A stretch of 63,633 nt of DNA, the filler included, from Hausera hauseri (lineage: Eukaryota): the NCBI GenBank assembly GCA_046269625.1. It is 11 parts of 11 records of this genome, joined end to end, with 100 filler letters (N's around TTAATTAATTAA, not from the genome) between each part and the next. Parts side by side here need not be neighbours in the genome. Positions count along the whole stretch, not along the records: positions 11,164 to 24,396 come from JBJURY010888733.1; 10 more parts are not named here. The stretch is one strand, 5' to 3'. Numbering within the stretch: position 1 is the first letter of the stretch; each line of letters opens with the position of its first letter. Below, piece after piece: positions 6,488 to 60,559 of this stretch. Under the pieces are notes generated by a model, which worked only from the letters and a program-made list of their open reading frames with translations, did no database searches and had not been told where the DNA came from. The translations under genes were made by a program, and so were the position numbers.

Positions 6488-7566
6488 ATGACTAGAGTAA
6501 GTTAATTATTAATAAAACAAATGTTATTGTAATGGATATTTAATTTTAGTACCAGTTAAAATAATTGTACCACTAATAATTTTTTTTCTGAAAAAAATTG
6601 AGAATTTCTAAGTTTAAAAATTTATCACTCTTAAGAAAAGAAGTAAAATAAGGTCAAAAGTACAATCAGATGGCTCTCAGAAGTCAGAAGATGAGATTCA
6701 GTATTGCATTTGTAGAAGTTCAGATGGAACTCGCTTTATGATGTAATTTTCATATTTGCATATAACAAAATCGATTTCGTAATTTTGATTTGCCTAAAAA
6801 TAAGTTCTAATTTTAGAGCATGTGATAATTGTGAAGAATGGTATCATGGAGATTGTATAAATGTAACACCAAAACAAGCAAATAATATCAAACATTTTTA
6901 CTGTCATCTATGTATTGGACGCAATCCGAGTTTGGAAATTGAATATAAAACAATAAAAGAAAATCGCCCAAGACTTCCAAATTTGAGGCAGCAAATCAAG
7001 AAGATAAATTTCTCTTCCGATGATGAAAATGATGCTGATTTAAGTTCATCAAGCACTCCTGAAAAGTCGTTCCCTTCCGGTAGAAGCAAAAGAACGACCC
7101 GAAAAAGATCTCGACCTTCCTTATCAGAATCGGTTAAATCTTTAGCCAAGAAACGCCGTGGTCGTCCCAAAGAAAAGCATGACGAATACGATGATGAAGC
7201 TACTGAAGATGAGATTGAAACATCTGGAATAGCTCCATCGATAAATGATTGTGCTCCTATCAGTATTTCGAATCATCCGGAAGATAGTGAATTGTACGGC
7301 AAAAAGTCATTTCGCAATCAGTTATCTAGTAATAATATATTCTGTGGTTCTTTTGTGCCTAGAACTCCGTCAATGGATGGTGTTATGAAAATATGCGGTA
7401 TGTGTGAAGGATGTAAATTAACCAAAAATTGCGGAAAATGTGATATGTGTTTGAAATGTTCGACGAATATAACTTCAAAATCCGTATGCCGAAAACGAAT
7501 TTGTCTCCGAAATAAATCAGATTCACACAATCAGAGACATCCGTATAACAAGGATTATCAAACCAT
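6488..7566 (+). CDS. CXXC1: CXXC-type zinc finger protein 1 (CFP1), 5' exons 6488-6496, 6636-6742, 6817-7566
   Basis: GT-AG introns splice in frame to MTRKRSK...[28 protein letters not shown] (PHD finger), followed by a CXXC finger CGMCEGC...CGKCDMC...CRKRIC. Downstream exons not seen. Confidence 0.85.
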
Positions 7567-8054
7567 GTTAGTGAATCAATTCTTGTTTTAATTTACTTTG
7601 TATTGATAATTGCGTAATTTGAGTAATGATTTTACGTTTGATTTTTATCGTAAATTAGTAGTAAACACAAAGTAAAAACGTATATATTGGAGAAATATTT
7701 TTAAACCGTTATATTGCATTTATTTTGTGTAGTAGTTATTAAAATATTGTATTAAGCATATTTTTATTCTGTATTGAACAAATATGACCTTCAATTATGT
7801 GGATTTATCATGTTGTTATTTACTTGAAGATACGACATTGACTAAATTTCATTTTTCTACTTCTGTTTATTGAACTTAATTATCGTTAAATTATATTTTT
7901 TAACCATTTAATTACATAAATATGCATGACACTAACATTGTTTTTTTAGAGTTATGTGTAACAAAGATAAGGAGTTACTAAAGATAGAAACACAGTTAAC
8001 CAATCATATTGGATAAAAATTTGGTCAGATAAAATCAGGGTCAAATATATTTTA

Positions 8055-10721: not shown

Positions 10722-11172
10722 TCTTTTCAAAAAATAAAGAACTTGTGAATAAATACTGAACAAGTTATAAAAATATCGATAAGATTTATGTACTTTATAT
10801 AAAACTACGCAAGCAAAATGAACTTTTCAAAAGACGAAGCACGTTTTTTTACAACACGTTGTACACTAGGAAGTCAAAAACCCAGTCGTGAACAGGATCG
10901 ATTCAATGGCCCCACTGTTGTGACGTCAGACCCCTCTCGAAAACTGGTTTCTTGGCCTTCTCTTAAAGGGGGTATTGGCCCGACCCGCTCGGCAGTTGGC
11001 CACACACTAGCGAGCGGGCTCACCGTGCATAAAGCAAAAATTACTACGGCTTTTGGCAAAAGANNNNNNNNNNNNNNNNNNNNNNNNNNNNNNNNNNNNN
11101 NNNNNNNTTAATTAATTAANNNNNNNNNNNNNNNNNNNNNNNNNNNNNNNNNNNNNNNNNNNNAAGAACCTA

Positions 11173-11735
11173 GTGCCACTAAGTGGAATTCTAACCAATG
11201 CTCCAAGTCCGAAACGCCCGGTCGGCAGACCTAGAAAAGCCGGAGAAGTTGACTATAACGGAGAGTTAATTAGAGAGCTAAGACAAATGTCGATTCCTAC
11301 CTTTAACACAGACAATGAAGAACTAAGCGAGTTAATGAAGAATTTAATACGTATCGTAAATTATTCAAACCTTCGAGGATATACATTAGATAAAAAAGAA
11401 AAGGCAATATTTAACGCAGCTAGGACAATGAGAAGTTCGCGTTTCAAACTGTCAAAAAGTAGCCTAACTGACGACGCAGTAGTTGGGAAAATTATGGTGG
11501 GAAATACGACAGAAGAGCTAAGGAAAGTACTATTGTACTTAGCAATCAAGACAAACCCAAATCGAGAAAATAAGTTCAACCGAGCTACGAGCATGGCACT
11601 AAAAGCAGCTAGGCAGCTTCCGTGCGACCAAAATTGTTTGACAGAGAAGACAAGAAGAACAGTAGTAATAATGGACTCGGAGACATAATACGGAATTTGA
11701 TGACAACGGATAATAATAACCGGAAAAAGGAATCT
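11173..11735 (+). pseudogene. Unknown polyprotein segment (ORF-X C-terminus) upstream of the glycoprotein
   Basis: PKRPVGRP...AARTMRSSRFKLSKS...EELRKVLL is conserved in the copy at 32761-33300 (-). Confidence 0.7.
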
Positions 11736-13677
11736 AATTGGTTAATCAGTTTGCTCACCATAATAATGCTGATATAACAGATGGGCGCCGTCACCGTCTA
11801 CGATTGCGATAGATTTAAGCTTGGACAAAAATAATCACTAATGAACCTAGAAGTATGTGAAGATGCCAGGCCACATAAATTGGAAACAAAGAAGAATTAC
11901 TTCCTATATCAACAACAAGAATTGATATCTTTGAATGGTATGGAGTGTATGCTGAGACGATCTCGTAGCATTTTCCATTGCGGATCAATGCACGGACATT
12001 CCTCGATAATTAAAACAACGACTCCTCCAACTCCAATGAATTTAGAAAGACAACACTGCAAACAGGCTCGAAAAACCGGAAGACTAAAATGGGATAGTAT
12101 GGAACTAGAGATGCAGCCTGGAAAGATAATTAGAGCATATAAGATAGTAGTCGGAAGACTAGATATGCATAATAGACAATGTAGCGGAACAGAATACGAT
12201 ACCAAAAAAGGACTGGAAGCTAACGTAATAGTAGTAGACTTTTACGAATCGGTGATGAGACTCCAAAAGGTGATGTTCCATAGCGTCACCAAGCTATATA
12301 CCGAGAATCAAAAATGTCATATACACGGCGGAACTTGTGCCTTCAGAAGCTCTGTCGTAATATGGGAACCGCCCTCCGGAAAAGGTTGTAATTTTATTAA
12401 GATTAACAAACTGAAATTTAATGAAACCACCGGAAAGAGATACATAGGCAAATCCGACGACAGTTCAACATCACGCGAAGGTGAATCAGAATATCATACA
12501 CCCACGATACTAATTTCTAATCAACATAAATTAAAATTCATAAAAAAGGAAAAGATTTCACGTTGTGAAGTAGTAATATTTACCACTAACTATGAAGCGT
12601 TTTTGTCGCAGAAACGGAAATAAACGCGCAAACATATAATCTAGAAACGCAATACATTCGAATTAAGGATTATCTGAAAAATCGGGACGATTACTTTTAT
12701 TATAAAGAACACGTCGGGATAGCCGAACTATATAACAAAATGATAACTAATGATTGCAAATTAGGTATAGAGTTTATGAGGACAAAATAGCTCTTATTTA
12801 TGCAAACCCTAAGTTAGTCTCACCAATCATTTCCGTGAGAGAATGGATCTTTGGTCGAGTTACTGGCGAAGTTTTGCTGACATATGAGTGTGAGAAAAGA
12901 GACGTACCAATTAATGTCAAATAAAAACGATGCATACAAAAACTTCCTATGATCTATCAGAACACTCCGCGGTTAGCCATACCCTCACTAGAGTGTTGCG
13001 AGACAACGAAAACACAACCCACAATCCTAAAGGACTGAAAGGCAAGTTTGGGTGAACCAATGTTTAGGCGTAGCGAAACGGATTGGATTAGTTTACCAAA
13101 CGGCGGTGTCACGATCGTCCCTAAAAAACTAACTGGAACTAATGTAGCGAAAAGAATTACCGACGACAAGTTCCAGGATATGGCACAAAAGGGCATTTAC
13201 AGACCAAAGGAGATCAAAGCTTTTAGACAATTTCTCGCTTTTCCACGGCAGCGAACACATGAATTAAACCGAGCTATGGCATTAGTGGTAGATGATACCC
13301 GTTATTAGGCTAAATGGGAATCTTTACTCGGTGTGAATCATTATCAGCAGGTGATCACAGAAATACTCTACAAAATATGGGGAAGATTTTTAATTTTTGG
13401 ACAAGCCTCATTAGGGTTTTTGGCTATATATGTTTTGGTACAGCTAGTAAAGGCAGTATTTCAAGCAATTATAAACGGATACGAAATATTCACGCTAACA
13501 GAATTTTCTTGTAAAATTTTAACCGCAATTATCGGACCCTTTGAAAAAATTCTGAAAACCTATGAAGAAAATCAATGGAAAAATGACGTTGAACGCCATG
13601 TCAACTACCATAATTACAAACAACGAGCAAGACCCACATTTCTATCGAAACGCAAAGCTAAGAAATTGACAACATGA
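11736..13677 (+). pseudogene. env: Env-like viral glycoprotein, chuvirus/gB-like class III fusogen, with internal signal peptide
   Basis: NWLISLLTIIMLI*QMGA|VTVYDC...SLMNLEVC...IFHCG, Cys-rich ectodomain, GIYRPKEIKAFRQFLAFP, and TM region WGRFLIFGQASLGFLAIYVLVQLVKAVFQAIINGY. These match chuviral glycoprotein motifs as I recall them. Confidence 0.8.
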
Positions 13678-14198
13678 AGAAATAGCTCCGATGATGACGA
13701 GCCTAAGGGAGGAGAAGTGATCCTCAGACAAAATAGACACAAAATTTATTCATTAATTAAGGCGTCCTTGCCCATCATCCCCCAACAGCCCCGATATATA
13801 AAGACTGCGATAAAACGTCAGTGATGTCATATAAATCAGAAAACCATCGAACACCCTTTAGATATGGGGACCCTTACGAAGAAACAAAACAGTACGAAGT
13901 ATTAAAGAAAATGAAAATCACTAATCAACAACGAGCGGAAAATGACCATAAACTATTGTACTCATCAAGAATAGCTCGTAATATAGAATCAAGATCGACA
14001 ATTTAGGGAATACAAGAAAGGGAATCGTTCCAAAAACCAATAATACAAGAACCATTATTTAGAAAAAACGCGGGTAACATAGCAATTAACGACTTATACC
14101 CGAACGAGGAACTAAAACAATGGACCGAAAACATCATTTCATCACCAGAGATCACAATAAACAGGCATAATATTTCTTCAATTAAGCGACCAAAGGAC

Positions 14199-14624
14199 GT
14201 GTCAAATCGTTACGGAACAGTTAAGGAAGGGAGACCCTTCACAAAAGTTGCCATTAAAGATGGGGAAGTCTATGCCTTAATCGACACCGGATTGGAAAAA
14301 TCATTTATTAAATTGGGATCAATACCCCCGACACTACGAAAACAATTACACCCAGCGTCATCGTCAGATCCAAGTAGCATAGAAGCCTTCGGGCAGGAAT
14401 CCAAACCAAAATTTAAGTAAAATCCAGTAGTGCAATTAATGGGTCAAATCCTTCAACACGAGTTTGTCATAATAGATCAGCTAACCGATAATGTAGTGTT
14501 AAGTTGCGATATACTGAAACAATTGTCCAATATCGCGATAAATTTGCATACCGGAAAAATACTTCAACTCGGACCAGCAAAAGGAATTAAAACAATGAAA
14601 GAAAGGAAACTAGGAGACGTATAA
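14199..14624 (+). pseudogene. Retropepsin aspartic protease
   Basis: YALIDTGLEKSFI...HEFVII...VVLSCDIL. Confidence 0.85.
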
Positions 14625-14891
14625 ATCCCCGTTGACGATCCCCCTGCTCAGAACCGAAATGATAAATTATGCTCAAATCCGGGAAGAAGACCAACCAGTA
14701 TACTTTGAACCACAAAAAGATGTTAACCCAAATATCAATACTCAATAAAATTTTGACAAGAGTGATAACAGGTCGGGTACCAATAAGATTAGTAAATAAC
14801 GCACCAACCACTGTAAGGTTATATGCCAATATTACATTGGGCCATACTTATAAGGTGTCAGCAATAACAGTAGAACAAAAAGCATACAAAT

Positions 14892-16396
14892 GTGCTGAAT
14901 TTCCACCTCACGTCGAAACTAAGTTTTCACCAGAAGCATACTGTCAATTTTACGAATTACTATGCAGATATAAGTCGATTATTGCCCAAAAAAGAAGATA
15001 TAGGTCAAGCAAAGGCTCTAAGGCTAACAATCCCATTAAAAAAACCTGGCTTAAATGATGAAATTGATTTGGAAGAGCAAAAGATGCCAAAATGGTATCC
15101 TCCGACCCATTCATTAAGGCCCGAAATAACTAAAGAGGTAGAACGCATGTTAAAGGCCGATGTAATACGACCAAGCTACCGGTCCTGGTACTCACCGATA
15201 CTCATGGTCAAGAAGAAAGGTACCACTAAACATGTATTCTGTATAGATTACCGGGCTCTAAAGGCTCTTATGATGGAGGACTCATTTCCACTACCGTCAG
15301 TAAAAGAAGCGTTAGATAGATTATCAGGAGCAAAGCGGTTAGCCACATTGAATTTACAATCCGGATACTGGAAAGTAAAAATTGAGGAAGACGATCGTTA
15401 CAAAACAGCGTTTAAGACGCACGACGGAGTTTACGAATTTAAGGTCATGCCGTTTGCTATAACAACCGGCCCAGATATCTTCACCAGAATGATGAATAAA
15501 ATGTTAATGGGACTCGATCACGCGTTCGCCTACTTAGACGATGTAATTATAGCATCGAAGACGGAAGAAGAACACCTAAAAACATAGAAGATACTCTCAT
15601 GCGGTTAAAACAGGCAGGATTGAAACTGAATCCCAAGAAATGTAAATGGGTGCAGAATGCTGTATCTTACCTCGGACATATAGTGGGAAAAGGAGGATCG
15701 AAACCAGATAAATCCTTATTGGGCAAAATATCAGATTGTATGGAACCCCAAAATCAGAAGGAATTAAGGCATTGGTTAGGCTTATGTGGATACTACACCA
15801 CTTATGTACCGGACAACTCGAAGATAAATGCACCATTATTTTGATTATTGAAAAAGGGAATCAAGTAGAAATGGACCGATATCGAACAAAAAGCGTTCGA
15901 CGAAATGAAGAAAATTCTAACAAGTGAACCAATAGTAGTAAGATATCCCGATTTTAATTTACCATTTATAACTAAAACAGATGCAAGTAAAGAGGGAATT
16001 GGTTACGAATTGGCGCGGAAACGAGAAGATAAGGAACTGGAACATCCGATTGCATACGGAGGACGATCACTCAAGAAGGCCGAGAAAAATTATTCGGTTA
16101 CTGAACTAGAGACACTAGCCGTGAAAGAAACCTTAAGGCATTTTAATGTTTATGTATACGGGCAGAAAATCATCACAGTTACCGATCACAAAGTCGTTAC
16201 AACGCTAAAAGGACGAGCTAATAACCCGGCATGTAAATTAAATCGGTGGATCGAGGAAATCTCACAATACAATATCGAATTTCAACATAAACTCGAAAGT
16301 AAATATATTAACGCAAATGCTTTATCAAGACTTAAGACAAAAACAAGCACGACTAAAACTATGAAGATAGCTCAACTCGAAAAATTGGTCGAATGA
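14892..16396 (+). pseudogene. pol: Gypsy reverse transcriptase and RNase H
   Basis: SPILMVKKK, CIDYRAL, YKTAF, FKVMPF, AYLDD, LNPKKC, YLGH, TDASKEGIG, YSVTELE, VTDH. Confidence 0.95.
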
Positions 16397-16399
16397 CAA

Positions 16400-17704
16400 C
16401 GGATCTGAACATTAAATAAAACTATCAAAATTTCTTCAGAGCAAGCTAAAGATAAAGTTATCCAACAAATAGTCAAATTCGTCGAGCAAGATGAAACACC
16501 GAAAGGACGCCAGCTAAAGAAACAATTACAAAGACACGGGCATAAATACTATGCATCAAATCAAGACAATATTTCATATTACGAACGAAAGGGACGGAAA
16601 CTAGTAGTCATTCTAAAGGGATTACGAACGGAAGTATTAATGGCCGAACATGATTCACATTTAGCTGGACACATGTCATGGAAGAAAACATTAGAAAGAA
16701 TACTGAATAAGTACTACTGGCCAAGCATTTATATCGACGTGAAAAACTAGGTGGACGCTTGAGAAGCATGTGCGACGAAACAAAAGAAGGTGAAAAACTA
16801 TATAGCAGAACTAAAACCAATCAATGTACCATACAGGCTTATGCAAGCTATGTCTATAAATATAGTAGGGCCCCTACCCACAACCCACAAAAATAACAAA
16901 TATATTTTGACATGCGTAGATCGACTAACACATTTTGTTGAATTAATAGCACTGATTAACCAGAAGAAAAAAACTTTAGCAGATGCAGTAGTGAGGAAAG
17001 TCCTTTGCAGATATGGACCTCCCGATCAAATATTAACTGATAGAGGAAGAAACTTTACGAGTGAGTTATTTGATAGAATTTTTAATATCTTCGAAATCGA
17101 ACGACTGACCACTACCGCTTATCACCCCAGTGTAACAGAATGGTCGAACGTATGAATGCAACCGTTCTACGAGTTTTATTGACAATAATCGCGAAGGATC
17201 AGAAGGATTGAGATAAATTTTTAGAAGGGGCATAATTTGCTATCAATACAACCCCACATCCGGCCACAGGATTTACACCATTTTTTATGATGTATAAAAG
17301 CAATATTACCTACGGACTTAGGAATGACTCCGTATTACGCAAATCCAGAAGATTTAGAACCGAATTTCGCGGAAGTTTTACAATTGAGATTACGAAGGTG
17401 TTGGGATATAGCAAAGACACTTACCCTCGAATATCAAGAGCAGTTTAAGAAACAGTATGGTAAGAAAGCCAGACCTCACGATTTTGAAAAAGGAAATTGG
17501 GTCTACGTGCATTATCCAGTCTCGAGGAAAAGTACGTCGTTAAAACTTACTAGTACCGGACGAGGACCTTACGAAGTTATCCGAACCAAAACAACCACTG
17601 TCTATATTAATAAAAATGGAAAAGAGGAGGTAGTATCTATACAGAGAGTTGTGGAAACCGAAATAAAAGGGGAAAAACGTTATAATTTGCGATCCAAAAA
17701 TTAG
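16400..17704 (+). pseudogene. Gypsy integrase (HHCC zinc finger, DDE core, GPY motif)
   Basis: HDSHLAGH...YYWP, GPLPTT...VDRLT, ILTDRGRNFTS, TTAYHP, GPYEV, RYNLR. Confidence 0.93.
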
Positions 17705-17757
17705 AATTCAAATCCAAGTCAGGCCAAAAGGAAAACAGATACATCTTCTATAATAAA

Positions 17758-19146
17758 TAGGCCAATATCCTACGTGCAGATAAAATCTTAGCATTATCAT
17801 TAATTGCCTCTTATGTTCCTAGGACTAAAGCACAATGGTGGGATGACAGCGAATCCAGTCTAGCAAATGTATATGCGATTAGCATAGGTGGAAGGGAAGC
17901 TAAAATTAAAGAAGAACAGAAACGCCTAGAAGGACGAAAAGATGTAGAAAATCTGAAAATTATGAAAGCCTGCGGCACATATTGAAAGAAACCATGTATC
18001 TGGTTCAGAACTGACAAGGCAATAAAATTATATGAAAATTCGTATAAAATTTACTGATCAACTTAAGGAAACGGTAAAAAATTGCGAATTCAGTTACGAA
18101 ATCTATAAGAAATGTTGCAAACTAGAATTTGGACAAACATACAGATATGTAATACTTATGTATTATTTCCAGTATGAGATTGTCCGTACAGATATAAAAC
18201 CGCTGATTGAAATAGCTATGCCAAAACAGAGAATTTCAAACCAAACTAAACTAACAGATGTAATTCAAGATACCGACCCTCAAACGAAATTGCTAGATGG
18301 AAATATAATTAAGGTCTCCGAGGCTTTAGAAAACGCATGTATCAAGATTAAAACTAGAAACGGACTAACCGAATCACATTAGATCTCGGTTCGATTTATA
18401 TCGCTTGAAAAATCAAGTTTACCAACAAGATATTGTGCTATTAACCAATGGAATTCAAACCCGTGTTGTAGAATTCCCCAAAGACACAGATACAAAATAA
18501 AGCTCGATCTGTATAAAACCAGACCAAACCAACCAAGTAAATACCTAAGAGGATATCGCTTAGGAAGTCAAATGTGCAAAATTCCATTCAGAGCGACGAC
18601 AACAACTAGCACTACTATTAAAACCATTACGACAAGTAAAGGACCCGAAAGACGACCGGAAGGTATTCCTATTAAATACTTATTACACCGAAACAAGATA
18701 ATATTCTTTGTCGAAGAAAAATTAAACTATGATATAGAGATAAACTGTCGGACCTTATATAGTAGACAAAAGGATACTTGTAAAGAATACACAACAGATA
18801 GAGTATAACTCATTAAAATCTCAGAGAGAGTATATAATACAAATTAATGCAGCTGAAAAACATAATCAAACAATTACTTTACATACTTTAACGGAAAATG
18901 TTTACCCAGAATCGCAAAAATGTCAAAACACCGAAAATATAATCTCTAGGCGTAGCACAAAACAGAAACTATCTGATTTGACAACTTAACCCACTATATT
19001 GATCTTCGAAATGTCAGCATTTGTCCTAATAGTATTAAGCGCGTCATTTTATTTGATTGCTAAAAATTGTAAAAAACAGCGTAAAATTAAGGGGGCAGAA
19101 ATAAGGGTAGTATACCAAAGTGACTTATATGATAGAATAATCTGAC
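17758..19146 (+). pseudogene. Putative second type I membrane protein of the element (signal, Cys-rich part, Thr-rich linker, FN3-like segment, TM)
   Basis: ILALSLIASYVPRTKAQWWD signal, PCC...KIKLDLY, TTTTSTT linker, KIIFFVEEKLNYDI, TM near 19000-19060; conserved in 61910-63290. Confidence 0.65.
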
Positions 19147-19256
19147 AATTACAGATCGGGTTATTCTATCGTCAGACAGTAAAAATGTTTCACTATGAAG
19201 CAAAAACCTGTCTTAAGATTAACCATTTTTTACTTTATTTTAGATTGGTAAGTAAA

Positions 19257-21340
19257 ATGGCAATCAGAATAGAATCTCACAGCCAGACTGATATCGACAA
19301 ATTCCTACAAGAAAACGCTAAGGCAATAACCCCAAACTCCAAAACAATCTATCAACAGATCCATATAGAACTACAAGACAAAACATCAGTCGGCTATGAT
19401 CAAATAGATAAAATCCCTATACATCTAGCAGAAGAAGAAATTTATTACCGATTGACTGGACAACCGTAAAAATCGAAAAAAGGACGACAGTATAAATTTA
19501 GCACTTTCCGACTGAGTAACAGGAGTCTATGTGACTATGAGTTAGAATTTAGGATCGCAGCCCTACCCGTAAAATTGATGTTAGAGATTACCTGCGAAGA
19601 AATTCCAACGGTGTCCCTACACCCTTTAATATACCACCAATACTCAACAGAAGAACAAATAGAACAACATTCAGGATCATACAAATTGGTACAGGACGGA
19701 CGGAATATTCGCGTCATGGCGACGAATTATGGAGAAAAGGATAACAAAAATTTAACTCACATCGAAATTTCTATACGCGATATGAATGGAGTAGAAATTT
19801 ATTATAAGAAGATCACACTCCGAAAAAGAATAAATGACACCTTTGCCGAAATAACCAGAATCAGGAAGGAAGATTTAATTAATGGAAAAGACATCCGAAT
19901 TGTGGAGATGGAGTTAAATCATTGCGTGTATGGATGTATGATTGCAGGGTTCCAAGCCCAAAAGCAGATGGAGAAATTAAAAATAAACATAGCAGGAATA
20001 CGCGAATTTTGGACTCACCCAAAGATTAGAGAGAGAATGGATAATATGAATTGACCAGTCCCGATGACTATGGAAACCCAGTTTAAAACCATGCTGGAAT
20101 CCATGAGTGAAAACCTTTACAAAATCAACAGACAATTATCCGCATCTAAGCGAACTCAATACCCCCGAGACTTTTATGCCACGTTAAAATGGGACCATGA
20201 ATGGTCACTGTTGAACCCCAAACAAAATTTGCAAAGTAGACAAGCCCAAAAGAACTAAACCACCGTCATCGCAAAGAGTTTCAGCCCTATTTCCCAATAC
20301 GGATCATAGAACTAAAAGAAAATAATAGTATACAAGTCACCGTGTCGACTCAAGAGGACAAAAGGATTGTACATCCTACCCAGAACATTATTACGCACGG
20401 ATTCAAGGTACCAGAAACATCTCAGAATTGTCAGGAAACATCACCAAAGAAATTCAGACTGCTTAAAGAAAAGAAAACAAAATCGATTTTTAACTTCTTT
20501 AAAACGAAGGATAAAGAGACAAAACAAATCAAGAAGGATTCATTCGAGAATGAACAAAATGAGACTCACAGAAGTAAGTGTGTTGAGCAAGAAAAGAGAA
20601 AATTCAGAAGAAACACAGCCCAAACCAGCCCAGGATGACGAAAAAGATTGGCCCCGGATCTTAATAATGGCAGAATACGTAAGTTATGGGAAAATTAAGG
20701 AAGCCCTGTTGTACATATATATCATGCCGAAACTGGAACTACATGAAAATGCATACGCCCGAGTAGACCCAAAACTTGGAAGATACCTCACGCCAGTTTT
20801 TAAATCGAAAACGGAAACTAATAGATTGACAGTGCCCGTAGATAATAAAGCACGGATAAAAATGAAGAGACAATACAAAAGGATGGGAGTTCCTGACTTG
20901 GATGCCGAACAAGTAGTCGAATGGACTCTTATAACCGTAAATGGCGACGCTAGGAAAAGTTCCATAGACTCGGACCAGAAACAATTGCATGGATATTTGT
21001 ACAAAAGCCCAAAAGGACTCCTTTTCAAGAGATAACATGGGTCACGGATTGTGACTTAGATAACGATAATGGAAAATTTGTCCCGTATGCGAAGCCAATT
21101 TATGGCAAGGTTATATAGTTTTAGCAAATAGAAATTGCCGACATCGACATTATCGAGACTGTTTAGAGCAATGGACATTAGTCAATGGTAAAACTACTTG
21201 TCCAGTATGCCGAACAGAGGAATCGCAGCTGAAATATTTTGCCCGAGGAGAAAACAACCGAGTGGTTAAAATAAAACCAAATTCTGCTTATTATTTGAAG
21301 GCAGGACCCCATACTAGAATATGAAATTCTTCGTTAGATA
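19257..21340 (+). pseudogene. 3' accessory ORF of unknown function
   Basis: ORFs 19185, 19575 and 20064 share one frame separated by single stops, then frameshift into 20342/20367-21035. Preceded by a pyrimidine tract + AG at 19226-19243. The 3' end is approximate. Confidence 0.55.
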
Positions 21341-21439
21341 ATTCGCAAAGTGATCTACGCGAACGGATAGACGCATTACGATGCTCAGATCATAGCGTCA
21401 CCTCTCCTGACGCAATAGGCACATCCGAGGATGTCGCTC

Positions 21440-21451
21440 AGGAAGGAGAAA
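21440..21451 (+). promoter_or_regulatory. Polypurine tract
   Basis: AGGAAGGAGAAA directly before the LTR start. Confidence 0.75.
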
Positions 21452-22176
21452 TATTATAAAAGCACTTAGTTGGTTATAAAGAAACACTCAATCGACAACG
21501 ATTGTAAATATTATTTTAGTCGACAGTAAATTTAATGATTATAAGAGAGCACTTCAGTGACGAAAATTGCAATAACGCTAATTGTAAATATTATTTTAGT
21601 AATTTTAAGCATCATGGTGCGGATTGGGCCAACAATAATTGTAAATAAAGTGGTAGAGGAATTAATGGAATCGGGTAAAATTGATTAAAATGGTGAGAAT
21701 CGAAAATTAATGTGTAAATATTCAGACGGTAAACAAAAGAAGTATATATACTGAGTCGGAAGAAACAGAAGGGTAACAATAACATCGACTGTAGAGTTGA
21801 TTCGGAAGCCAGAAACTGAGAAGAAAGGAAGAGCCGACAAATTCGAGAGAAACCTATTGAAATCTTACTTGATTGAACTTATCAACTGTGGTAGTGATTT
21901 GTGGTATTAATATATTTTGTCTCTAGAAAATTATCTTATAGTTTTCCTTCGGCTCTTAAAGCTGATTTGAGTCACATTAAGGTTAAAATCTACAGTCAAC
22001 TATATAGGTACCAGAATTATTAAACAACGCACAGGACACGACATTTATTCTATCCGCACGTAAAGCATACATATTGGCACATTCGTTTAACGAGAACGTT
22101 AAACCGAATCTTCGTAGCTCAACAAAAATTTATGTTATATAGATGAGAGTGATAAGAGCCACCCTAATATATAACA
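21452..22176 (+). repeat. LTR (about 725 bp)
   Basis: Starts TATTATA (TGTTATA with one change) and ends TATAACA (inverted ends); PPT before, PBS after; TATATATA at 21743-21750. Confidence 0.8.
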
Positions 22177-22178
22177 TT

Positions 22179-22196
22179 TGGCGACCCTAGCAGGAC
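22179..22196 (+). promoter_or_regulatory. Primer-binding site, tRNA-Arg type
   Basis: TGGCGACCCTAGCAGGAC lies 2 nt after the LTR end and is complementary to the 3' end of a tRNA-Arg(TCG/CCG)-like tRNA. Confidence 0.8.
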
Positions 22197-22478
22197 AGTC
22201 TGTGCCTAGCTAGATACTATTCAGAGTCAAGTAACGACATACCGGCTATCAGCGCCATCTACACCAAGTAATTGTGGAAAGATTTAAAATTTGGGATATA
22301 AGTTATTGAACTTAAATTTAAAGGGATAATTCAGGACGAATACTGACAACCAAGTAAACGGTGAAGAAAAATCACCTATACGTCAGACGCGTAGAGTTAT
22401 ATATAAAGAAATAAATAAAAAATCAAATTCTGAAACTAGAGCTAAAATAAGTAACGTCGAACCAAGAATAACGCAAAC

Positions 22479-24055
22479 ATGATAGCAGATAATCCAGCCA
22501 TAGTGCAGAAGCTTGACATTTTTACATTTGACTCCTTGAATCTGTCATCATACGATGGTGACCCAAATGGACTAAACGACTTTTTAAGAACTTATAAGTT
22601 TCATGCAAAAGGTGCTAATCTCACTCCTGAAGTAACAATAAAAAGTTTATCACTATATCTAAAGAATTTAGCAGCTGATGCTTATAGCGAGCTTACTAAC
22701 GATGAAAAGAAAACTTGGTCCGCCCTGGTAGGTGCATTAAACCGTAAGCCATTACCAACAGTAACGCCGCAACAGAAACTTATGGCATTTTAGAACAGAG
22801 TGCAATAGAAGGGTGAATCAGTAACCCAGTTTGCATTTGCGTTAAAGAAACTCGCTAACAGTTACGTAAGTACTTTAGGATAGCCAACTTATTAAAAGCT
22901 AAAACAGATGCAGAACGTAACGCTTCGGAAAAAGTGACCCCACCTGATTTAGAAGCCATGATGACAACTCAGTTAATAAATGGCATATGGTCAAGAGATC
23001 TAGTTAAACAGTTGATTCTGGCCAGACCCGACAATTTTGAGAAAACGTTGCAATTAGCTCAAGATTTAGAGATGGCATTGGAGAGATATGCCAAACAAGG
23101 TAATAAATACGAAAGGAACAATGACGGTAATAATCGGCATAAAAACGGTAACCACGACAACAGACATTATAATGACAATACCCGAAACCGAGGTTTTAAT
23201 AATAGGAAGAAGAATCAAAGAGATAATAGAAATTTTAGTAATAATCGGAATACGTTCAGCTTGTACAATAAGCCGGGTTATAATCCTGACAGGAACCAAG
23301 ATAGTTACCGACTAAATAATAAATACACGGATAATCTAAATAACGATAATAGATATGACGGAGATAACAGACAATTACCACAAAACCAAAATAAGAATAT
23401 AAACAGATAAAAATCACCCGTGAACGAAGATGGCCGACAAAGGATTGTCCGAAACGGGAATTTAATTTGCTTTACATGTGGCAAAGAAGGACATATTGCT
23501 AGGTCATGCTCAAATCCTAAAAGTGTTGCATTTACGGAACCAAATAAAACAGGTATGATTAGAAATAACCCAGAAGCTATTTATGGTAAGCGAGGCGACA
23601 TAAGTATGATTATTGAAATGCAAAACTTGTGTAGGTCTGCAAGAAATATAGGCGAAACTACTAACCCTCAAGTCATAAAAGCTAGAAAAGAATATGAAGA
23701 GAAATTACGACTAATTGAAGTCTATCACGGACTAAGAAAGCCCCAAACCGAAGAAGAATATGCACTGGCACCAAACAACGCCAATATGGCGCGTAAAAAG
23801 TCTATTACTCAAGGGATAGTCCAGTCGGAAAAACAAACGACGTCTGTGAATGTCGATTTAGATGCAGATTCCGAAAAACATTACCCAGATAAAACAACAA
23901 ACGAAGTCGAAAGCGAATTTATGGGGCCTTCAGTTCTCAAAATAACGAAGAATAAAGGTAGAAGCCCATTGCTTAAGAGAAAATCCAAAACCCGTTCAAG
24001 ATCGCCCATTAAGAAGGACGTGAAAGGAAAAGGAGACTTCTATACCGCTATCTAA
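22479..24055 (+). pseudogene. gag: Gag with Asn-rich linker and CCHC zinc knuckle
   Basis: YDGDPNGLNDFL...YLKNLAADAY...W, QxxGESVTQF, QLINGI, CFTCGKEGHIARSC. Coding-like sequence continues to the contig end with no protease motif. Confidence 0.9.
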
Positions 24056-24496
24056 GGAGACAACCCGCCCTTAGACAAGCTTCAAAGGACTTTAGACACG
24101 TTGGAAATGTCAAATATAATAACCATTAACGATGAAATCAATGAAACTTGTCTGCTTCCCACTAGTGAGGAAGAAACTAAAGGAGACAATGACTTTGATG
24201 CAAAAAACGGAAAGTTTGACGTTCATGGAAAAATGCCGATAAATTAAAGAGAATGAGAATTAGATGTCACGATCCAGAGGTAATCCGACACAATCTAGAA
24301 GGACTTAAACAGATCAGTAAACAAGCAGATATATCCGGTAAAGAGCAACAATTTGGGGAGAAATTATATAAAAGTTTGAAATTATGTAGCGAAGGANNNN
24401 NNNNNNNNNNNNNNNNNNNNNNNNNNNNNNNNNNNNNNNNTTAATTAATTAANNNNNNNNNNNNNNNNNNNNNNNNNNNNNNNNNNNNNNNNNNNN

Positions 24497-25071
<575 letters not shown>

Positions 25072-30734: not shown

Positions 30735-32759
30735 ACAGAGTACATTTTATGCCTATTTATTCCTAAAAGTGCTTCTCCTACCTTAGATTCGTCATCATCT
30801 GAATTATTCCTTCGTGTAATAGGTTTTGTTAATTTTTGCTTCTGTAGGAATATAGGCCTTCCTGTTCGTTTACGATTATAGTAGCCGACATGGCGTTCTA
30901 CGTCCGATTTCCATCTATTTTTTTCGTATGCTTTCAAGAATTTTTCAAAAGGCGTTATGATTGCAGTCAGTATTTTACATGAAAATCCGGTCAATGTAAA
31001 TATCTTGTATCCATTTATTACTGCTTGAATGACTGCCTTAATCATTTGTATCAGAAAATATATAGCTAAAAATCCGGATGCGGCTTGACCGGAAATCAAA
31101 AATCTTCCCCAAATTCTATAGAGTATCTCTGTCGTTACTCTTTGATAGTGGCTTACGCCAAGTAATGATTCCCATTTAGCCTGATATCGTGTATCGTCTA
31201 TTACAGACGCCATATCTCGATTCAACTCATGTGTTCGTTGTCGCGGAAAGGCAAGGAATTGTCTGAAGGCCTCGATTTCCTTCGGGCTGTATAAACCTTT
31301 TGACGAGGTGTCTTGAATTTTATCATTTGTGATTCCCTTCGCGAAATTCGTTCCTGTCAATTTATTTGGGCGGCAATAATACCTCCATTTGGCAAACTAA
31401 CCCAGTCTGTCTCACTACGTCTAAACATAGGTTCTCTTAAGCTTGCCTTACAATCCTTAAGAATGGTTGGTTGTGTTGCATTATCCAATGATACTCTTGT
31501 CAACTGCGTAGCTAACCTGGGAGTATTTTGATAAATGACAGGAAATTCCTGAATGCAACGTTTTTCTTCTACGTTGATGGGTACATCTCTCTTCTTGCAT
31601 TCTTAGGATAGCAGTACTTCGCCTGTAACCCTACCGAAAATTCCTTCTCTCATAGGAATCATGGGAGAAGCTAACTCTGGGTTGGCGTATATGAGAGCCA
31701 ATTTAGTCCTCATAATTTCAGTATCTAATTTTCAGTCATTCATTATCATTTTGTGATATATTTCTGTTATCGCGACTTGCCGTTTGTGATAGAAGTAATC
31801 GTCTCTGTTTTTCAGGTAATTTTCAATTCGGACATCCTGCGTGTCAAATTTGTAGGCTTTTGCATTTATTTCTGTTTCTGCAACGAAAAATGCTTTATAG
31901 TTAGTAGCGAACATTACCACGTCACAACGAGAGATCATTACCTGTTTTTATAAATTTCAATCCATACTGATCCGAAATCAATATAGTGGGCGTAGGCTGT
32001 TCCGATACATCTTCGCGTGTCCTTGACTTAGTCTCAGATTTATCTATACATCGTTTTCCGGTAGTTTCATTAAATTTTAACTCTTTAATTTTAATAAAAT
32101 TACAGCTCCTTTCAGACAGAGGTTCCCATATTATAACAGAACTTCTAAAAGCACAGGTTCCATCTTGTAAGTGGCATTTTCGATTCTCGGTGTATAACTT
32201 GTCGACACCATGGAACATTACTTTCTGTGACCGCATCTCTGATTCGTAAAAAATCTACTACTACCACATTCGATTGTAATTCTTTTCCGGTATCGTATTC
32301 CGCTCCGTAACAATGTCCGCTGTGCATACTTAATCTTCCGGCCACTACCTTGTATGTCCTAATTATCTTTCCTAGTTGCATTTCTAATTGCATACTGTCC
32401 CATTGTACTCTTCCAGTCGCTTTAGCTTGTTTGTAGTGTTGGCGTTCTAAGTTTATTGGAATTAGCGAAGTGGTTGGCTTGATTATGGAGTAATGTCCAT
32501 GTACTAGCTTACAGTGAAATATGCTATGCGACAGTCTCAGCATGCATTCCATTCCATCTAACGATATCAATTATTGTTGTTGGTATAGGAAGTAATTTTT
32601 TTCTCTTGTTTCCAACTTGTGCGGTCTGGAATCTTCGCATACTTCCAGATCCATTATGGAATATCTCTGCCCTAGTTTAAACTTATCGCAATCATAGACG
32701 GTAACTGCGCTTATGTGTTTTATTAGCATCATTAAGGTGAGTAGGCTGATTAACCAATC
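30735..32759 (-). pseudogene. env: Second copy of the chuvirus-like glycoprotein
   Basis: DWLISLLTLMMLIKHISA|VTVYDC...GLYSPKEIEAFRQFLAFP...WGRFLISGQAASGFLAIY; collinear with 11736-13750 and open past the TM to the contig end. Confidence 0.85.
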
Positions 32760-34798
32760 TGACTAATTTTGCCGGTGGCCAAAATCCGTCGTTGTTAAAT
32801 TGCGTATTATATCGTCAAGTTTATTACTGGTCCGTCTGTCTTCTTCCTTGTCAAACAGTCTTGATCAATTTACTTCGCAAGGCATTCTTCTTGCTGCTTT
32901 TCGTGCTAAGCTTATAGCTCTGTTGATTTCATTCTCTCGGTTAGAGTTCACTTTGATAGCTAAATGTAATAATACTTTTCTCAATTCCTCGTGGGTGTTC
33001 TCTACCATGATCTTCTCGATTACCGATTCGTCGGTTAAGTTACTTTTTGATAATTTAAAACGTGAACTTCGCATTGTTCTAGCTGCATCAAAAATTATCC
33101 TTTCTTTATCATCTGATGTGTTTGAATAATTTACAATTCGTATCACATTCTGCATTAACTCGTTTCATTCTTCATTGTCTGCACTAAGAGTCGAAATCGA
33201 CATCTGTATCAATTCTCTAATTAATTCTTCGTCATAATCCACTCCTCGCGTTTTCTTGGGTATACCTACTGGACGTTTCGGTCTTGGACTCTTAGTGGTT
33301 GTTTCACTCAGTGGGACTAAATTTATGTCGTATTGTTCCTTATCCTCATCCGTTTGTAAGTACTCAAAATACATTGCAGCGTCTCGGACACCCATAATTT
33401 GTCCTACACATTGCTCCGTTTTAGCTTTACGTGTAGATTCTTTCTTTGTCTGTTCATTACCCATTATTGCCACTATCCGATTTGTTTCGTCGGGAATAAT
33501 TTTGACATCTATCAATTGTTCTAGGTCGTCGAGGATTTTGCCTGTAAAGTAAAATCTATAATTTACCTCATTTGTTCCGCCGTTATTTAATAACCATTCT
33601 CTTACGTCCCTCACATAGGAATATGTAGTTAATTTGCATACTTTTTCGTTCATCCACTCGGATGATATCATTACTTTCATCGCTACGTCTGGTCTAGCCT
33701 TCAAAATTTTAGCGTACTTCATAATCAGAAGTTTCGGCACCTTACTATAAATCGTATTCTCACTAGATAGTTTAGTTAGCGTCGGAATTAGTTGTCTTAA
33801 CTTATTTTTAGTAATATTTACGTTAATTAGTTCCACTAAATCTTTTTCAGTTAGCGCTAAGTCCAGAAGCATCTCCACATTGAATCTCCTGTCCTGCGGA
33901 CATGTTTCTATCTCGTTTCGTTGCAGTGGAGTCACGGGTTTTTCGGCAAATATTGCGTCAAAGTATGCATCCCATTCGGATTCGTTTCCAGCATCTGGAG
34001 GTCCATAGCCTACTAAAGCCGTATTCATTCGTTTCACGTTTTCCCTGATTTCTTTTAATCTTGGTTGAAATTCTTTCATCTACGTGGTTCGGGAGCCTAC
34101 TCCGTTTCCGCAGGCTTATTGAATCATTTTCAGTAACTCACCAAATTTGATAGAATCGATGCGCCCCTTTTGGTGATAATCCGTTAGTTCAATAATTACG
34201 TCTTTTTGCCACCTTTGTACTAATTCTCGCTTATTTTTAATCTATGACTCAGTAAAAGCATATTTGTTTTGATAGACTTCGAGCTTTTTTGTTAGTTCAT
34301 CCAACCTGGTTGCTCTTTGTTTTGTTTTAATACATGTTTCTTCTACTTTGTGTATCATGGGCATCAATTGTCTTATTTTCTCATCACTAATCTCTGCCAT
34401 TTCTACCAATAAATGGCTTTTGAGTCTGGGTCCATTGCATCCGACAATGTCTTTACGAATTTCTGTTCCAGAAAACTAAAATGTGTGTCGTTTTTTATTT
34501 TTGTCAACTTGGTATGAAAATTCTGATTTGATCCGGCCATCCATTCTTGTGGTTTATGCAAGAATTTTATTGCGTCCGTCATCATGTCTCGATGTTTCGG
34601 ACAGATGTCTAAAGTTTTAATGCCTTGGACAGCAATCTCGTCGATAGGTTTATCTGTTAAATGTTGGACTCCTTCTAGTCGAATAATTCTTAAATTTAAG
34701 TTTAAGTTGTAAATCATATTCCTCTTTTCTGTAAAGTTCGTCTCTTCGACAAATTTATAGATGTCTTTCAATATCGACGTTTCTTGTTTTCCTTTCAT
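32760..34798 (-). pseudogene. ORF-X region of the giant Gypsy (unknown segment upstream of the glycoprotein)
   Basis: ORFs 33165-34079 and 32865-33155 share a frame across one stop; the C-terminal part aligns with 11173-11735. Confidence 0.7.
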
Positions 34799-34944
34799 AA
34801 ATTTTTATGGTTGTAACGCTTAGAATTGAGTACGAATGTCTATTNNNNNNNNNNNNNNNNNNNNNNNNNNNNNNNNNNNNNNNNNNNNTTAATTAATTAA
34901 NNNNNNNNNNNNNNNNNNNNNNNNNNNNNNNNNNNNNNNNNNNN

Positions 34945-37900
34945 ATCAATAAACAGTTGAGTCTTTCATTTCTTTTGACTCTCTATTGGAATTATTCATT
35001 ACTTTTGCTGTGGATATTTATGACAAATTTAGCACTCAGCTTCTTGCGTTATCTATAGCTTCACATGCTAACCCATCTCTAGTAATCGGCCAAGATCTTC
35101 TCACTAAACTACGGAAAGCACATTCTATCTTAGCACCAATCCTACAAAATGACTATTGGATGCTTCTCAGAATTAATCTCATCAAAGGGAAAATTCAAAT
35201 ACTAGACTCTCTCTCGAATAATGATAATGCGGAGTTGAAACAATTCCTAGTCTCTCTATGCGAAACTTTACCAAAAATTCTGAACTGCGGTACCTTCACA
35301 TTCGAAAAATATCCTAAAACACTGTCAAAGCAAACAAACAATATAGACTGAGGCCCATATATTTGCGATTTTATAAAATATCTGTGTGATGAAAGATCAC
35401 TAGACTCGTTTGATCCAGAACAAGTACGGCACAAAGTGGCTCTGCGCCAAACTTTAAAAGCTCTCCCAAGCTGACCAGCGAAGATCAAGGGCGCAAATTC
35501 TATGCATTCATCCTTGAGAAGAATTACATGTTCCTATGCATGGAAGGAGATTGTCAATTTACTTCATACCACATCCGGACAAACCACAGTGACGCAAATG
35601 ATCCTCAACTGAGAATCTTATGCAAGTGCAAACGCTTCTACAAAGTGCACGAAACATTCTCACATACTAAAGACTGCATGAAATTGGACACGGCAAGCCG
35701 AAAACTTCTAAAAGACTGGAATTTTGAACTTCTATCGAAATTTAAATGCCAAAAGCTCATATGCTGCTTTCCCCAATGCCTCGAACAATTTCAGTGTGCG
35801 AGAATTTCAACGGACAATATAGAACGTCACTGGTCTAAACGTGACCATAAGGAGCTCACGCCTGAGTCAAACATACATTGTTTTGGCTGTCAAGAAATTT
35901 TACCTTACAAGAATCTTAGCAGCCACTACAACCAACACCACAAACTGACTCAAAGCGCCTCCAAACGCAAACTTGCATGACTATCCAAACCTAAAGCCTC
36001 ATCTATTGACTCTCTAGATACTACTATCAAGACCTTACTTGACAGATACCTACCCGCTACAGCAATGCTCTTTAATATTCAAGCGACAGCGGCACTACTA
36101 GCGAAAGATGAGGACTTCATCAAACACTCAATTTCATTTTCAGATTTCATATATTGAATATCTCTTCTGCTTAATTACAACTGCTACTGGACATCGAATG
36201 ACCTTCATTGGATCGATATCAGACGGCACTTGCAGCATAATTGATCCAGCAAATTCAGATAATCCTTTAAAAGCAAGTATATACGGACATATTTTAACTA
36301 AATTGTTCAACAGCTTTCTACGATCATCAAAGCTTAAATTCTCAGAAAATACCCATATAACACGAAAGGAAGAAACATGTCTCGACTGTGGCCCGATTAT
36401 CTGTGCTGAAATTCTAAACATCATTCAAGAGGCTCCAAATCGACAATGGGACATCAGAAGCCTCAGATATGAGTTGAAGAAAATTCAAAATCATCAATTT
36501 CGACAGCCGGAAACTGAAAACTCAAAAATCAGAAAACACTCTATAGGCATCGGAAAACAAGCTGCAAGTGACTTACTGCGATTACTGTGGTTAGCTAACA
36601 CACAAATGGCAGCAGATAAAATCTATGAACACATTCTTCAATTGCGCTCTGACAAACCACTGCCCCAAAATATCAGACACGATCCAAAGCTACCAGAACG
36701 GGATCAAAATTGCGAAAACATCCGAAAATCCTATTTAAAAGACAAAAAAGGAACAATCGAAAAATACTCTATGCATCCACACTTACGGAGTTCTCCAACG
36801 AAGAAACAATTGTCGCACATTTCATAAAGAAAGGCAACCCATCAAAAGCCGTTAATTGGACGGAAAGCTTCCCAACAATTCAAGGGTCGGAATTCCAGTT
36901 TCATAGTCCATCGGCTGAAGAAATTATGACATGCTTGAAGAGATTAAAACATTCCGCGGCGGGAGAAGACACAATCTTTTATCGAGACTTCTTGTATACT
37001 GATCCTGAAGCAAAACTCATGGAATACCTCTTTAACAAAGTGGTTGAAAATTGTACGGCTCCGACACAATGGACACGTTTCAAAAACTTGCTAATTCCAA
37101 AAAATATAAAGATGGCTCTTATAACAACATCGACTCTTGGAGACCCATCGCTCTACTCTCGTCAGTATACAAAATTCTGACACGTTGCCTAACACACTAG
37201 CTGCAATACTAGATTAAAGCAGTAGGACTTTTTCACCCGTTTCAGAAAAACATGGGCCCATACGAAGGATGCTCGGTACACAATTTTACTATAACATCAA
37301 TTTTCCAATATCAAAGACGCAATTAGATCCTCCCAATTCATGTGGCCTTCTTGAATATTTGCGAAGCATTTCCAACAGTGCTGATATGCGTCAACCTTCG
37401 CAAAATGGGCTGCCAAGAAAAATAATTATCTTTAATAGAAGCGCTTTACTCCAAAAGCGATTGCGCATACATTTGCGGATCGATCAAAACGGGATACCTA
37501 CCAATTCGCACTGGTGTTCGCCAAGGTTGTCCACTTTCGATGTTACTACTCAGCATTTGAATCAACCCACTTCTGATGGAGTTGTCGAGTGAGCTAAGCT
37601 TTGGATACAGTTTACACCAACAAAAAGTTGCAGTTCTAGCATACGCCGACAATTTGGCACTTATTTCTCAAACTCAGAACTGGTTGCAACAAATGATCCA
37701 ATGTGCGGGGAGGTTTGCTGAGAGAATCAATATAACTTTTAATCCGAAGAAATGTGGTTATCTTAGCCACAATCACACGCATTCTTGGGATCTCATAATC
37801 CACGACCAGCCTATCCCGATTATCAAAAGTGGATAATCCTACAAATATCTTGGAGTAAACTTTTCAAAACGAGATAAGACTTCACCAGTCGAATTAATGC

Positions 37901-39993: not shown

Positions 39994-40378
39994 TTGTCTG
40001 TCTGTCTGTCAATCGATCGAAAATCGTACGACGACGACGTTTGTTTATAGTTGCAAAGCTAACTGATCTACCACGTCCACGTTTTCTCATCAAGCCACTG
40101 CCAAGAAATTGTTTTTTGACTGATTCAACGACCCTCTGTGCAGCGCTTTTTATTTCGGACAAGGCATGTATTTTCAGTGATGGTAAAATTGATTTGTTTT
40201 CATATAGTACATTATGTGCGGTTTTTACTGCCAAGGCTCCAGTACGCTTCAACACCGGAAATTCTAAACGTGCCAATGTACGCAACCATCCAGAGCCGTA
40301 CTGTTTACCGACGAAATACTGCAGTTTCCCGCCCTGCTGCGGTTTATTGTAAATGGATACGATTTCGGAATCAATCAT
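39974..40378 (-). CDS. Maverick basic core-like protein
   Basis: QQGG...FVGKQYGSGWLRTLAR.FP.LK motif and Arg-rich tail; lies just before the capsid gene. Confidence 0.7.
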   Translation of the reverse strand: MIDSEIVSIYNKPQQGGKLQYFVGKQYGSGWLRTLARLEFPVLKRTGALAVKTAHNVLYENKSILPSLKIHALSEIKSAAQRVVESVKKQFLGSGLMRKRGRGRSVSFATINKRRRRTIFDRLTDRQTNGTCKI

Positions 40379-41455: not shown

Positions 41456-41491
41456 CTCGATGATGATGATGATGATGACGCAGTTTGTTTA

Positions 41492-43620: not shown

Positions 43621-43699
43621 TACAACAACTAGAACGAAACGTAAGTGAAAGATTCTGTAAACTGGGGCAGAAAGATAAAAACCATGCACCCATATCGCC

Positions 43700-59689: not shown

Positions 59690-59900
59690 CTAAGTGCTCT
59701 GCTGATTAGCATTGCAATCATGTCTCTTCACATCTCTCCATCTCTTGCATTGGACATCAAATGTTTTGTTCACTTTTGTTGTTAATGCCATGTTATCAAG
59801 CCATCTAAATTTTCTGTCTCTTCCTCTGGCTCTCTTCACCTCTCTTGTTTTTATTAGGTTTTCCAATTTCCCTCTTCTCATCACATCCTAAAAATTATTA
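59690..59900 (-). mobile_element. RTE-clade LINE 3' remnant
   Basis: MRRGKLENLI...KRARGR...RWLD C-terminal motif. Confidence 0.6.
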
Positions 59901-60529: not shown

Positions 60530-60559
60530 CTGTAATAAAAAAGTCAGCTTAAAGAAATA

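Follow-up and report, generated by a model that had tools for sequence, protein, structure and literature searches.

A predicted type I membrane protein with FN3-like domains encoded behind the integrase of a gB-type Gypsy element in Hausera hauseri

Behind the integrase of a decayed Gypsy element in the genome of Hausera hauseri (assembly GCA_046269625.1) lies a reading frame that begins with a hydrophobic segment and ends in a membrane helix. It raises the question of whether the element encodes a second surface protein, how such a protein would be connected to Pol, and what it would do. The initial annotation had described an integrase reading through into this protein and had taken the product for an attachment or receptor-mimic partner of the fusogen. 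The window, the whole stretch of 63,633 nucleotides that was analyzed, consists of 11 small contigs joined by N spacers, and the contigs bearing the gB-type element span 4-13 kb. Our overall reading is that the gene belongs to a gag-env-pol Gypsy element and that its product is a predicted type I protein containing three predicted FN3-like domains. This product likely forms the end of the Pol polyprotein and probably acts as an attachment or adhesion partner of the gB-type fusogen; for the conjunction of all these parts, our confidence falls slightly short of even.

The element and its gene order

One element family was found on three contigs, A, B, and C, with the following features:

11164-24396, plus strand: contig A (JBJURY010888733.1)
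11757-13824, plus strand: env, decayed; an internal hydrophobic signal-like segment followed by a chuvirus/gB-type fusion glycoprotein (Pfam PF24664)
13824-17701, plus strand: pol, decayed; protease, RT, and RNase H, together with integrase (Pfam RVP, RVT_1, RT_RNaseH, Integrase_H2C2, rve)
19257-21340, plus strand: accessory ORFs, with a RING finger in the last one (21076-21213; PF13639, E 7.7e-07)
21439-22196, plus strand: purine tract (21439-21451), putative LTR (21452-22176) with near-perfect inverted ends, and PBS-like TGGCGACC at 22179 (sequence inspection)
22479-24396, plus strand: gag of the next unit with a CCHC knuckle, running off the contig (PF00098, E 1.3e-05)
30735-34844, minus strand: contig C with copy C, 72.6% DNA identity to 11171-13751; pre-env region (weakly ubiquitin-like stretch, ubiquitin E 0.1, and AT-hook-like motif) and env (PF24664)
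59643-63633, plus strand: contig B, 70% DNA identity to 16416-17873
60539-63286, plus strand: copy B; integrase, linker, and membrane-protein gene from 61910, with breaks near 61821, 62072, 62163, 62253, 62271, 62482, and 63054

The pol domains follow one another in PR-RT-RH-IN order at 13824-17160 (Pfam), and env sits upstream of pol. The Monjiviricetes fusion glycoprotein family, PF24664, scored above its cut-off on two env segments of copy A (E 1.7e-17 and 1.9e-23) and in four of the five env segments tested in copies A and C. The hydrophobic segment of env is in frame with the preceding ORF, with no break upstream. In copy A, the stop codon of env overlaps the first ATG of pol in the sequence TGATG (13822-13826, read from the sequence), a layout known from termination-reinitiation; the overlap could alternatively be a private break of one single ORF. 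The region before env (33165-34079 on the minus strand and 11167-11688) resembles ubiquitin weakly over one stretch, contains an AT-hook-like motif (Pfam E 0.19), and has a helical domain at the place where Burro, a planarian giant Gypsy element, has BCL2. The ubiquitin match lies below the Pfam cut-off, and 19 of 21 PDB rows for this stretch were ubiquitin chains at about 3 bits per domain.

The order on contig A is env, protease, RT, RNase H, integrase, the membrane-protein gene, more ORFs, and a RING finger, followed by a purine tract, an LTR-like stretch, a PBS-like motif, and gag with a CCHC knuckle. Given this succession of integrase, gene, and purine tract with LTR, the membrane-protein gene lies inside the element; the LTR call is based on one single LTR, without an LTR-LTR comparison. 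As gag and the PBS-like motif are on the far side of that LTR, gag and env of one unit do not share a contig, and from the sequence layout we read contig A as two successive units that share an LTR, the first represented by its 3' part and the second by its start, which would reflect a tandem insertion or a collapsed assembly. A purine run at 13706-13720 was rejected as a polypurine tract, being inside the env tail. Directly 3' of the membrane-protein gene is a 266-codon accessory ORF (19257-20054) with one stop and no family match above the cut-off, and the RING finger ends the ORF or ORFs at 20064-21340; apart from the RING-bearing one, the accessory ORFs at 19257-21340 gave no Pfam match above the cut-off. 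Rfam returned no matches across contig A. The gene order of the element fits a flatworm origin, which we consider likely.

Elsewhere in the window, a contig of higher GC carries an intron-free papain-family cysteine protease ORF (24445-25071, minus strand), which we take to be protist-like, and the assembly may mix organisms. A PHD and CXXC protein is encoded at 6716-7591 (best PDB match CXXC-type zinc finger protein 1, E 1.3e-13). Three further regions were inspected by eye (35414-38690, 40371-43698 on the minus strand, and 46801-49879 on the minus strand); they hold a zinc-finger-bearing non-LTR retrotransposon, Polinton-like ORFs that include an integrase, and another Gypsy pol, this one lacking env.

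The membrane-protein gene, its conservation, and its predicted fold

The gene at 17759-19145 in copy A aligns end to end with 61910-63286 in copy B. A frameshift-aware pairwise alignment recovered the homology from signal peptide to TM helix, each copy having its own breaks. The architecture comprises a signal peptide, a charged helix, two Cys-bearing repeats, a Thr-rich linker, a third beta-domain, one TM helix, and a YxxI tail. The parts in copy A, with the homologous protein P0001 (see below) as reference, are as follows:

17702-17758, plus strand: in-frame TAG (17702-17704) and ATG-free linker from integrase tail to signal peptide, 33 nt longer than that of copy B
17759-17832, plus strand: predicted signal peptide with predicted cleavage before QWW; frameshift near 17783; 88% amino acid identity to copy B, pN/pS 0.10
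17833-17990, plus strand: charged segment, a long helix in the P0001 model (helix 42-76); stop at 17983; 35/69 residues identical to P0001
17992-18240, plus strand: beta-domain 1 (Cys, Cys, Cys-Cys), predicted FN3-like; frameshift near 18030; model strands 87-161
18320-18530, plus strand: beta-domain 2, the YC...PCC block, predicted FN3-like; stop at 18380; pN/pS 0.52; model strands 191-261
18570-18655, plus strand: Thr/Ser-rich linker, low model confidence
18656-18890, plus strand: beta-domain 3, FN3-like by prediction; frameshift near 18773; 51% amino acid identity between copies A and B, pN/pS 0.36
18891-19145, plus strand: stalk, TM helix (about 18990-19064), and basic tail ending YDRI; stop at 18987; terminal TGA at 19143-19145

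The signal peptide call is based on hydropathy (Kyte-Doolittle 2.2-2.3) and the residues at -3/-1, cleavage before QWW being presumed from the small residues there under the von Heijne rule. The TM segment reaches a hydropathy over 19 residues of 2.1 in copy A, 3.2 in copy B, and 2.3 in P0001. The tails read YDRI in copy A and P0001 and YGRI in the second homologue, P0002; copy B has no YxxI, and its sequence past the TM helix does not resemble that of copy A. YxxI-type tyrosine sorting motifs are known from viral envelope tails. A PDZ-type C-terminus was considered and dropped, being a misfit in two of the three tails seen, which end in Thr. Downstream of the TM helix of copy B, 63250-63633 is rich in short palindromes (TGCA, ATCGAT) and is perhaps another insertion. 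Near the 3' end of the gene in copy A, the summed contig depth in run X1 was about 7800 at 19120-19561 and 150-970 in the adjacent bins; a short sequence there is common to many more contigs.

A profile search of 1.84 billion representative sequences returned three matches, and no host donor gene was among them. P0001 (479 aa, E 6e-47) has the whole layout intact without a break; all eight window segments match it, with no more than 1 of 500 shuffles scoring as high. P0002 (189 aa) covers the C-terminal part, its gene call starting inside the ORF. Both are single ENA sequences, P0001 coming from another element and lying on a contig of 4939 bp. The layout is common to four diverged sequences. 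The third match, P0003 (E 1.1e-08), is a tandem-repeat protein of unrelated layout and was left out of the alignments; a misaligned row (62073-62270) was also removed between alignments A2 and A3. In P0001, the hydrophobic segment is at 17-27, the only 19-residue window above 1.6 is at 429-447 (hydropathy only), and the protein has four NxS/T sites and nine K/R in the tail; its ectodomain has no furin-like site. With an N-terminal signal, one C-terminal TM helix, and a basic cytosolic tail, the product is by hydropathy a predicted type I membrane glycoprotein. Further searches retrieved no intact copy with DNA context: the copy B segment gave no match among 131 candidates, profile A3 found P0001 alone among 4571, scans for loci confirmed none of 157, 205, and 2 pattern matches, and a PDB sequence search gave one chance TM match.

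The initial annotation had called for a codon comparison of the two copies. Across 423 codon pairs, pN/pS was 0.54 [0.47-0.63] at an amino acid identity of 40% and with synonymous sites near saturation, which indicates purifying selection. By part, pN/pS was 0.10 in the signal peptide, 0.71 in the N-terminal part, 0.52 in the Cys domain, 0.73 in the Thr linker (interval spanning 1), 0.36 in the third domain, and 0.52 in stalk and TM helix; integrase controls gave 0.21-0.23. Because a protein-guided alignment favors low pN/pS, the comparison was repeated on a DNA-only alignment, and this frame-blind test agreed: identity was 0.47-0.49 at third codon positions but 0.65-0.70 at the first two, with Fisher p values from 1e-11 to 2e-9 in all three scoring schemes. 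The initial annotation had named a lack of purifying selection as a ground for rejecting its reading, and the gene withstood this check. The signal peptide is kept more than the integrase, suggesting a shared processing constraint; the ectodomain has diverged fast (29-51% amino acid identity versus 70-78% in the integrase), a divergence that would fit receptor binding and host-conflict roles equally. The gene is real: it is decayed, was formerly under selection, and is encoded by the element. Part of the initial description held: both copies have the Cys-rich YC...PCC block, the Thr-rich linker, the FN3-like segment, and the TM helix, and selection, P0001, and the Pfam matches of env support the view that the element encodes a predicted type I membrane protein in addition to a fusogen with its own gene. 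The description had overlooked another Cys-bearing repeat, which lies upstream of YC...PCC. Domains 1 and 2 of P0001 are repeats with the pattern Cys, Cys, Cys-Cys (none of 2000 shuffles reached the score); domain 2 resembles domain 3 weakly (27/2000), and domain 1 shows no resemblance to domain 3 (1213/2000).

Structure prediction, also proposed at the outset, gave seven-strand FN3-like domains at moderate confidence, and in place of the single FN3-like segment first recognized the model shows three predicted FN3-like sandwiches. The AlphaFold2 model of P0001 (9 rows, mean pLDDT 55.5, pTM 0.29, domains about 55-74) contains a signal helix, a long charged helix, three seven-strand beta-domains, and a confident TM helix. 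Foldseek placed tandem FN3 fragments on top (best E 2.1e-05; fibronectin, Tie2, gp130, tenascin), the best 10 PDB rows being eight fibronectin/FNIII/gp130 FnIII fragments, one IL-23 receptor complex, and one phage tail fibre. VIA-align returned a flat list with none at 8, headed by a phage tail-tip protein (Z 7.2, rmsd 2.8, 78 aligned), and its best Z of 7.2 is within the range of common folds. Domain 1 had a best Z of 7.2 with many FN3 rows at 6-6.8, domain 2 matched fibronectin 6mfa (Z 6.8, rmsd 3.8, 75 aligned), and domain 3 was hardly covered. For domain 3 of copy B, Pfam fn3 (PF00041) gave a subthreshold score (E 0.026, 15.2 bits), as it did for P0002 (13 bits; cut-off 25). The ESM Atlas leads were FN3 membrane proteins (0.83-0.88, all below 0.9), and a viral fold library returned generic phage FN3/tail proteins, with no animal-virus attachment protein near the top. 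A model of the copy B fragment (pLDDT 36.8; structure search best Z 5.8) was too poor and was discarded. All three domains are likely FN3-like; the searches found no donor gene, for which receptor phosphatases, cytokine receptors, and cestode oncosphere antigens are candidate families.

The junction with integrase

In copy B, the integrase tail QRVV...KRYNLR is open without a stop into RPISYVQIILALSLIASYIPRTQT-QWWDD, as first reported and as translation confirmed; this tail shares its frame with the signal peptide from QRVV onward, but is separated from the integrase body by a frameshift near 61821. The same motif in copy A, also claimed initially, is present from 17759 but split by the frameshift near 17783. 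That frameshift is absent in three contigs of the one public run containing the stretch, which holds many related contigs but is possibly the source of the assembly and so not independent. A 386-letter contig of the run spans 17386-17769 with 72 differences and, among the top 40 differences listed, no gap; the linker length of copy A is therefore not private. We take YNLR here to be the integrase end motif; a literature search for it in that capacity produced nothing relevant.

The claim that the integrase reads through is favored by the shared frame and the absence of an ATG but was not confirmed as to continuity. In copy A, integrase and signal peptide lie in one frame with the TAG at 17702-17704 between RYNLRSKN and the signal peptide, and an unbroken frame from integrase to signal peptide was seen in neither copy. 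The frame is nevertheless kept in both copies despite the 33-nt length difference, and no ATG occurs in any frame at 17660-17790 of copy A or 61820-61945 of copy B. Copy A has 17 stops in 2260 codons (a stop at 18023, which depends on frameshift placement, was left out of the count), giving p=0.13 for a chance stop within the 19-codon linker. From these sequence features, readthrough from integrase is likely, and we lean somewhat towards a fusion of the membrane protein to integrase in this element family.

The chief alternative, a serious contender that we place somewhat below even, is that the integrase ends at RYNLR and that translation of the membrane protein starts at an ATG of its own, uses a spliced RNA, or depends on leaky stop readthrough, with subfamilies possibly differing. 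The TAG directly after RYNLRSKN in copy A would fit such an arrangement, although copy B has no stop in its linker. P0001 was called as a stand-alone protein with a Met directly before ARPISY (...MARPISY), and its leader resembles neither linker, with 151 and 462 of 500 shuffles scoring as high; against this, neither A nor B offers an ATG, and gene calls in this collection can begin inside an ORF, as for P0002. At the RPISY arginine, the two copies share a TAG in the same register, preceded by a pyrimidine-rich stretch; this could be a splice acceptor, but the AG is accounted for by the Arg codon alone. Splicing and stop suppression have both been reported for retroelement env-like genes in the part of PMC2829016 consulted. 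A search for a fused homologue, comparing an integrase-tail profile with longer proteins, gave 0 of 3155 and was a weak search.

Possible role and relation to known systems

If the protein is fused to integrase, the hydrophobic segment would act as an internal signal sequence and host signal peptidase would cut before QWW, a course of events that we find modestly probable. Pol would stay tethered to the membrane until released, while the ectodomain enters the lumen; the internal signal of env would act likewise for the Gag part. The protein would thereby come to lie in the same membrane as the fusogen. Its YxxI tail would direct it to the budding membrane, and the two distal Cys-stabilized domains, raised on their Thr-rich stalk, would engage the target cell through a receptor or a matrix glycan, acting from either the particle or the producing cell; sorting and binding taken jointly stand at about an even chance. 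Distal Cys domains on a stalk, a fast-diverging ectodomain, and a sorting motif are compatible with an attachment or adhesion protein, and also with a decoy receptor; for the attachment or adhesion role itself, we consider the case evenly poised.

Instead of an entry factor, the protein might be a cell-surface modulator of the host, an FN3 receptor decoy or mimic or a reinfection blocker acting with the RING and accessory genes, which we think possible but rather unlikely. The gene heads the accessory ORF block with the RING finger, among its fold neighbors are receptors for cytokines and interferons as well as an IFN-gamma binding protein of a poxvirus (Z 5.9-6.5), and Burro elements carry apoptosis and ubiquitin regulators according to the portion of PMC6431247 seen. 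No receptor family stands out, however, with Z tied near 6-7, the short tail lacks a signaling domain, and the processing constraint suggested by the signal peptide, kept more than the integrase, also speaks against this role. That the element captured an FN3 gene from a host and carries it as a neutral passenger, or that decayed sequence came into this arrangement by chance, is very improbable: synonymous sites are near saturation, yet the frame, the cysteines, the signal peptide, and the TM helix have been preserved, four diverged sequences have a common layout, and the three matches among 1.84 billion representatives include no host gene.

Membrane proteins encoded behind pol have precedents of other kinds. 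SIRE1 has, like copy A, one stop between pol and an env-like ORF, which is expressed by stop codon suppression, but it is a plant Copia element and, unlike the element here, has no fusogen (PMC2829016, consulted in part). Bdelloid LTR retrotransposons have small membrane-protein ORFs 3' of pol, as here; these extra TM ORF3s replace env, whereas here the membrane protein accompanies it (PMC5408684, in the part seen), and "fibronectin" and "FN3" do not occur in the main text of that article.

Closer relatives are the gB-type errantiviruses with GAG-ENV-POL order, known from Platyhelminthes, Nematoda, and Bryozoa (Chary and Hayashi, PMC13524379, consulted in part). They share with the present element a Gypsy-order pol and a gB-type env before pol, and the env of Smed_errantivirus_1 in supplement 3 has, by eye only, the same cysteine and motif spacing as the env here. 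Smed_errantivirus_1 and _2 are multi-copy elements, with 45 and 215 copies. The sections of that article at hand annotate GAG, ENV, and POL only and mention no protein past integrase; "RPISY" and "LSLIASY" do not occur in its seven supplement files, an absence that says little, as the sequences seen there are ENV alignments. The same source calls the cell entry of these viruses unknown, as herpes gB needs partner glycoproteins. A second surface protein in gB-type elements would be a concrete candidate for such an entry partner, and the intact P0001 makes binding testable.

Burro (GYPSM1) likewise has env between gag and pol with matches to mononegavirus-type fusion proteins, within an internal region of up to 25 kb (PMC6431247, consulted in part). 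From the same partial source, it has a ubiquitin-like stretch before env, weak here, as well as accessory ORFs and a RING motif, a trait shared by the element here (21076-21213), position in Burro aside. Its env is in frame, whereas in copy A, which is full of breaks, the env stop overlaps the pol ATG; copy C ends before this junction. BCL2, dUTPase, BIR, ankyrin, and MATH had no match in single-sequence Pfam scans of the element part present; the BCL2-like domain before env and the dUTPase-like domain between PR and RT are HHpred-level findings in Burro (PMC6431247). That review on Burro contains no occurrence of "Fibronectin," and the literature covered, to which the Burro figure, Grohme 2018, and the Repbase entries do not belong, yielded no description of the present protein. 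The candidate can be sought in planarian elements with hundreds of intact copies. As a tentative and rather doubtful generalization, flatworm Burro-type gB retroelements may be two-component enveloped viruses, with a class III fusogen from the Gag side and an FN3 adhesion-like protein from the Pol side, each freed by its own internal signal peptide and both polyproteins moored to the membrane; the FN3 protein would then be the missing receptor-binding subunit, like herpesvirus gD or paramyxovirus H/G but with a host adhesion fold.

Signal-flanked envelope proteins inside polyproteins have precedents in the env of Burro (PMC6431247) and in the GN/GC of Atlas (PMC9094657), both sources seen in part. 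In the nematode belpaoviruses of the Atlas/Cer13 type, GN- and GC-like proteins stand at the end of one Gag-Pol-Env polyprotein (PMC9094657). The initial label of a two-glycoprotein retroelement therefore holds in that a second membrane-protein gene accompanies the fusogen, but the present system is no new category. Like Atlas/Cer13, with an attachment GN-like and a fusion GC-like protein behind Pol, it may work with two envelope proteins. Atlas/Cer13 are, in the part of PMC9094657 seen, Bel/Pao elements with one phlebovirus-like precursor and a class II fusogen, whereas here the element is Gypsy, two genes flank pol, and the second has a predicted cell-adhesion-type fold; if this reading is true, an LTR element has kept such a fold as a structural or cell-surface gene.
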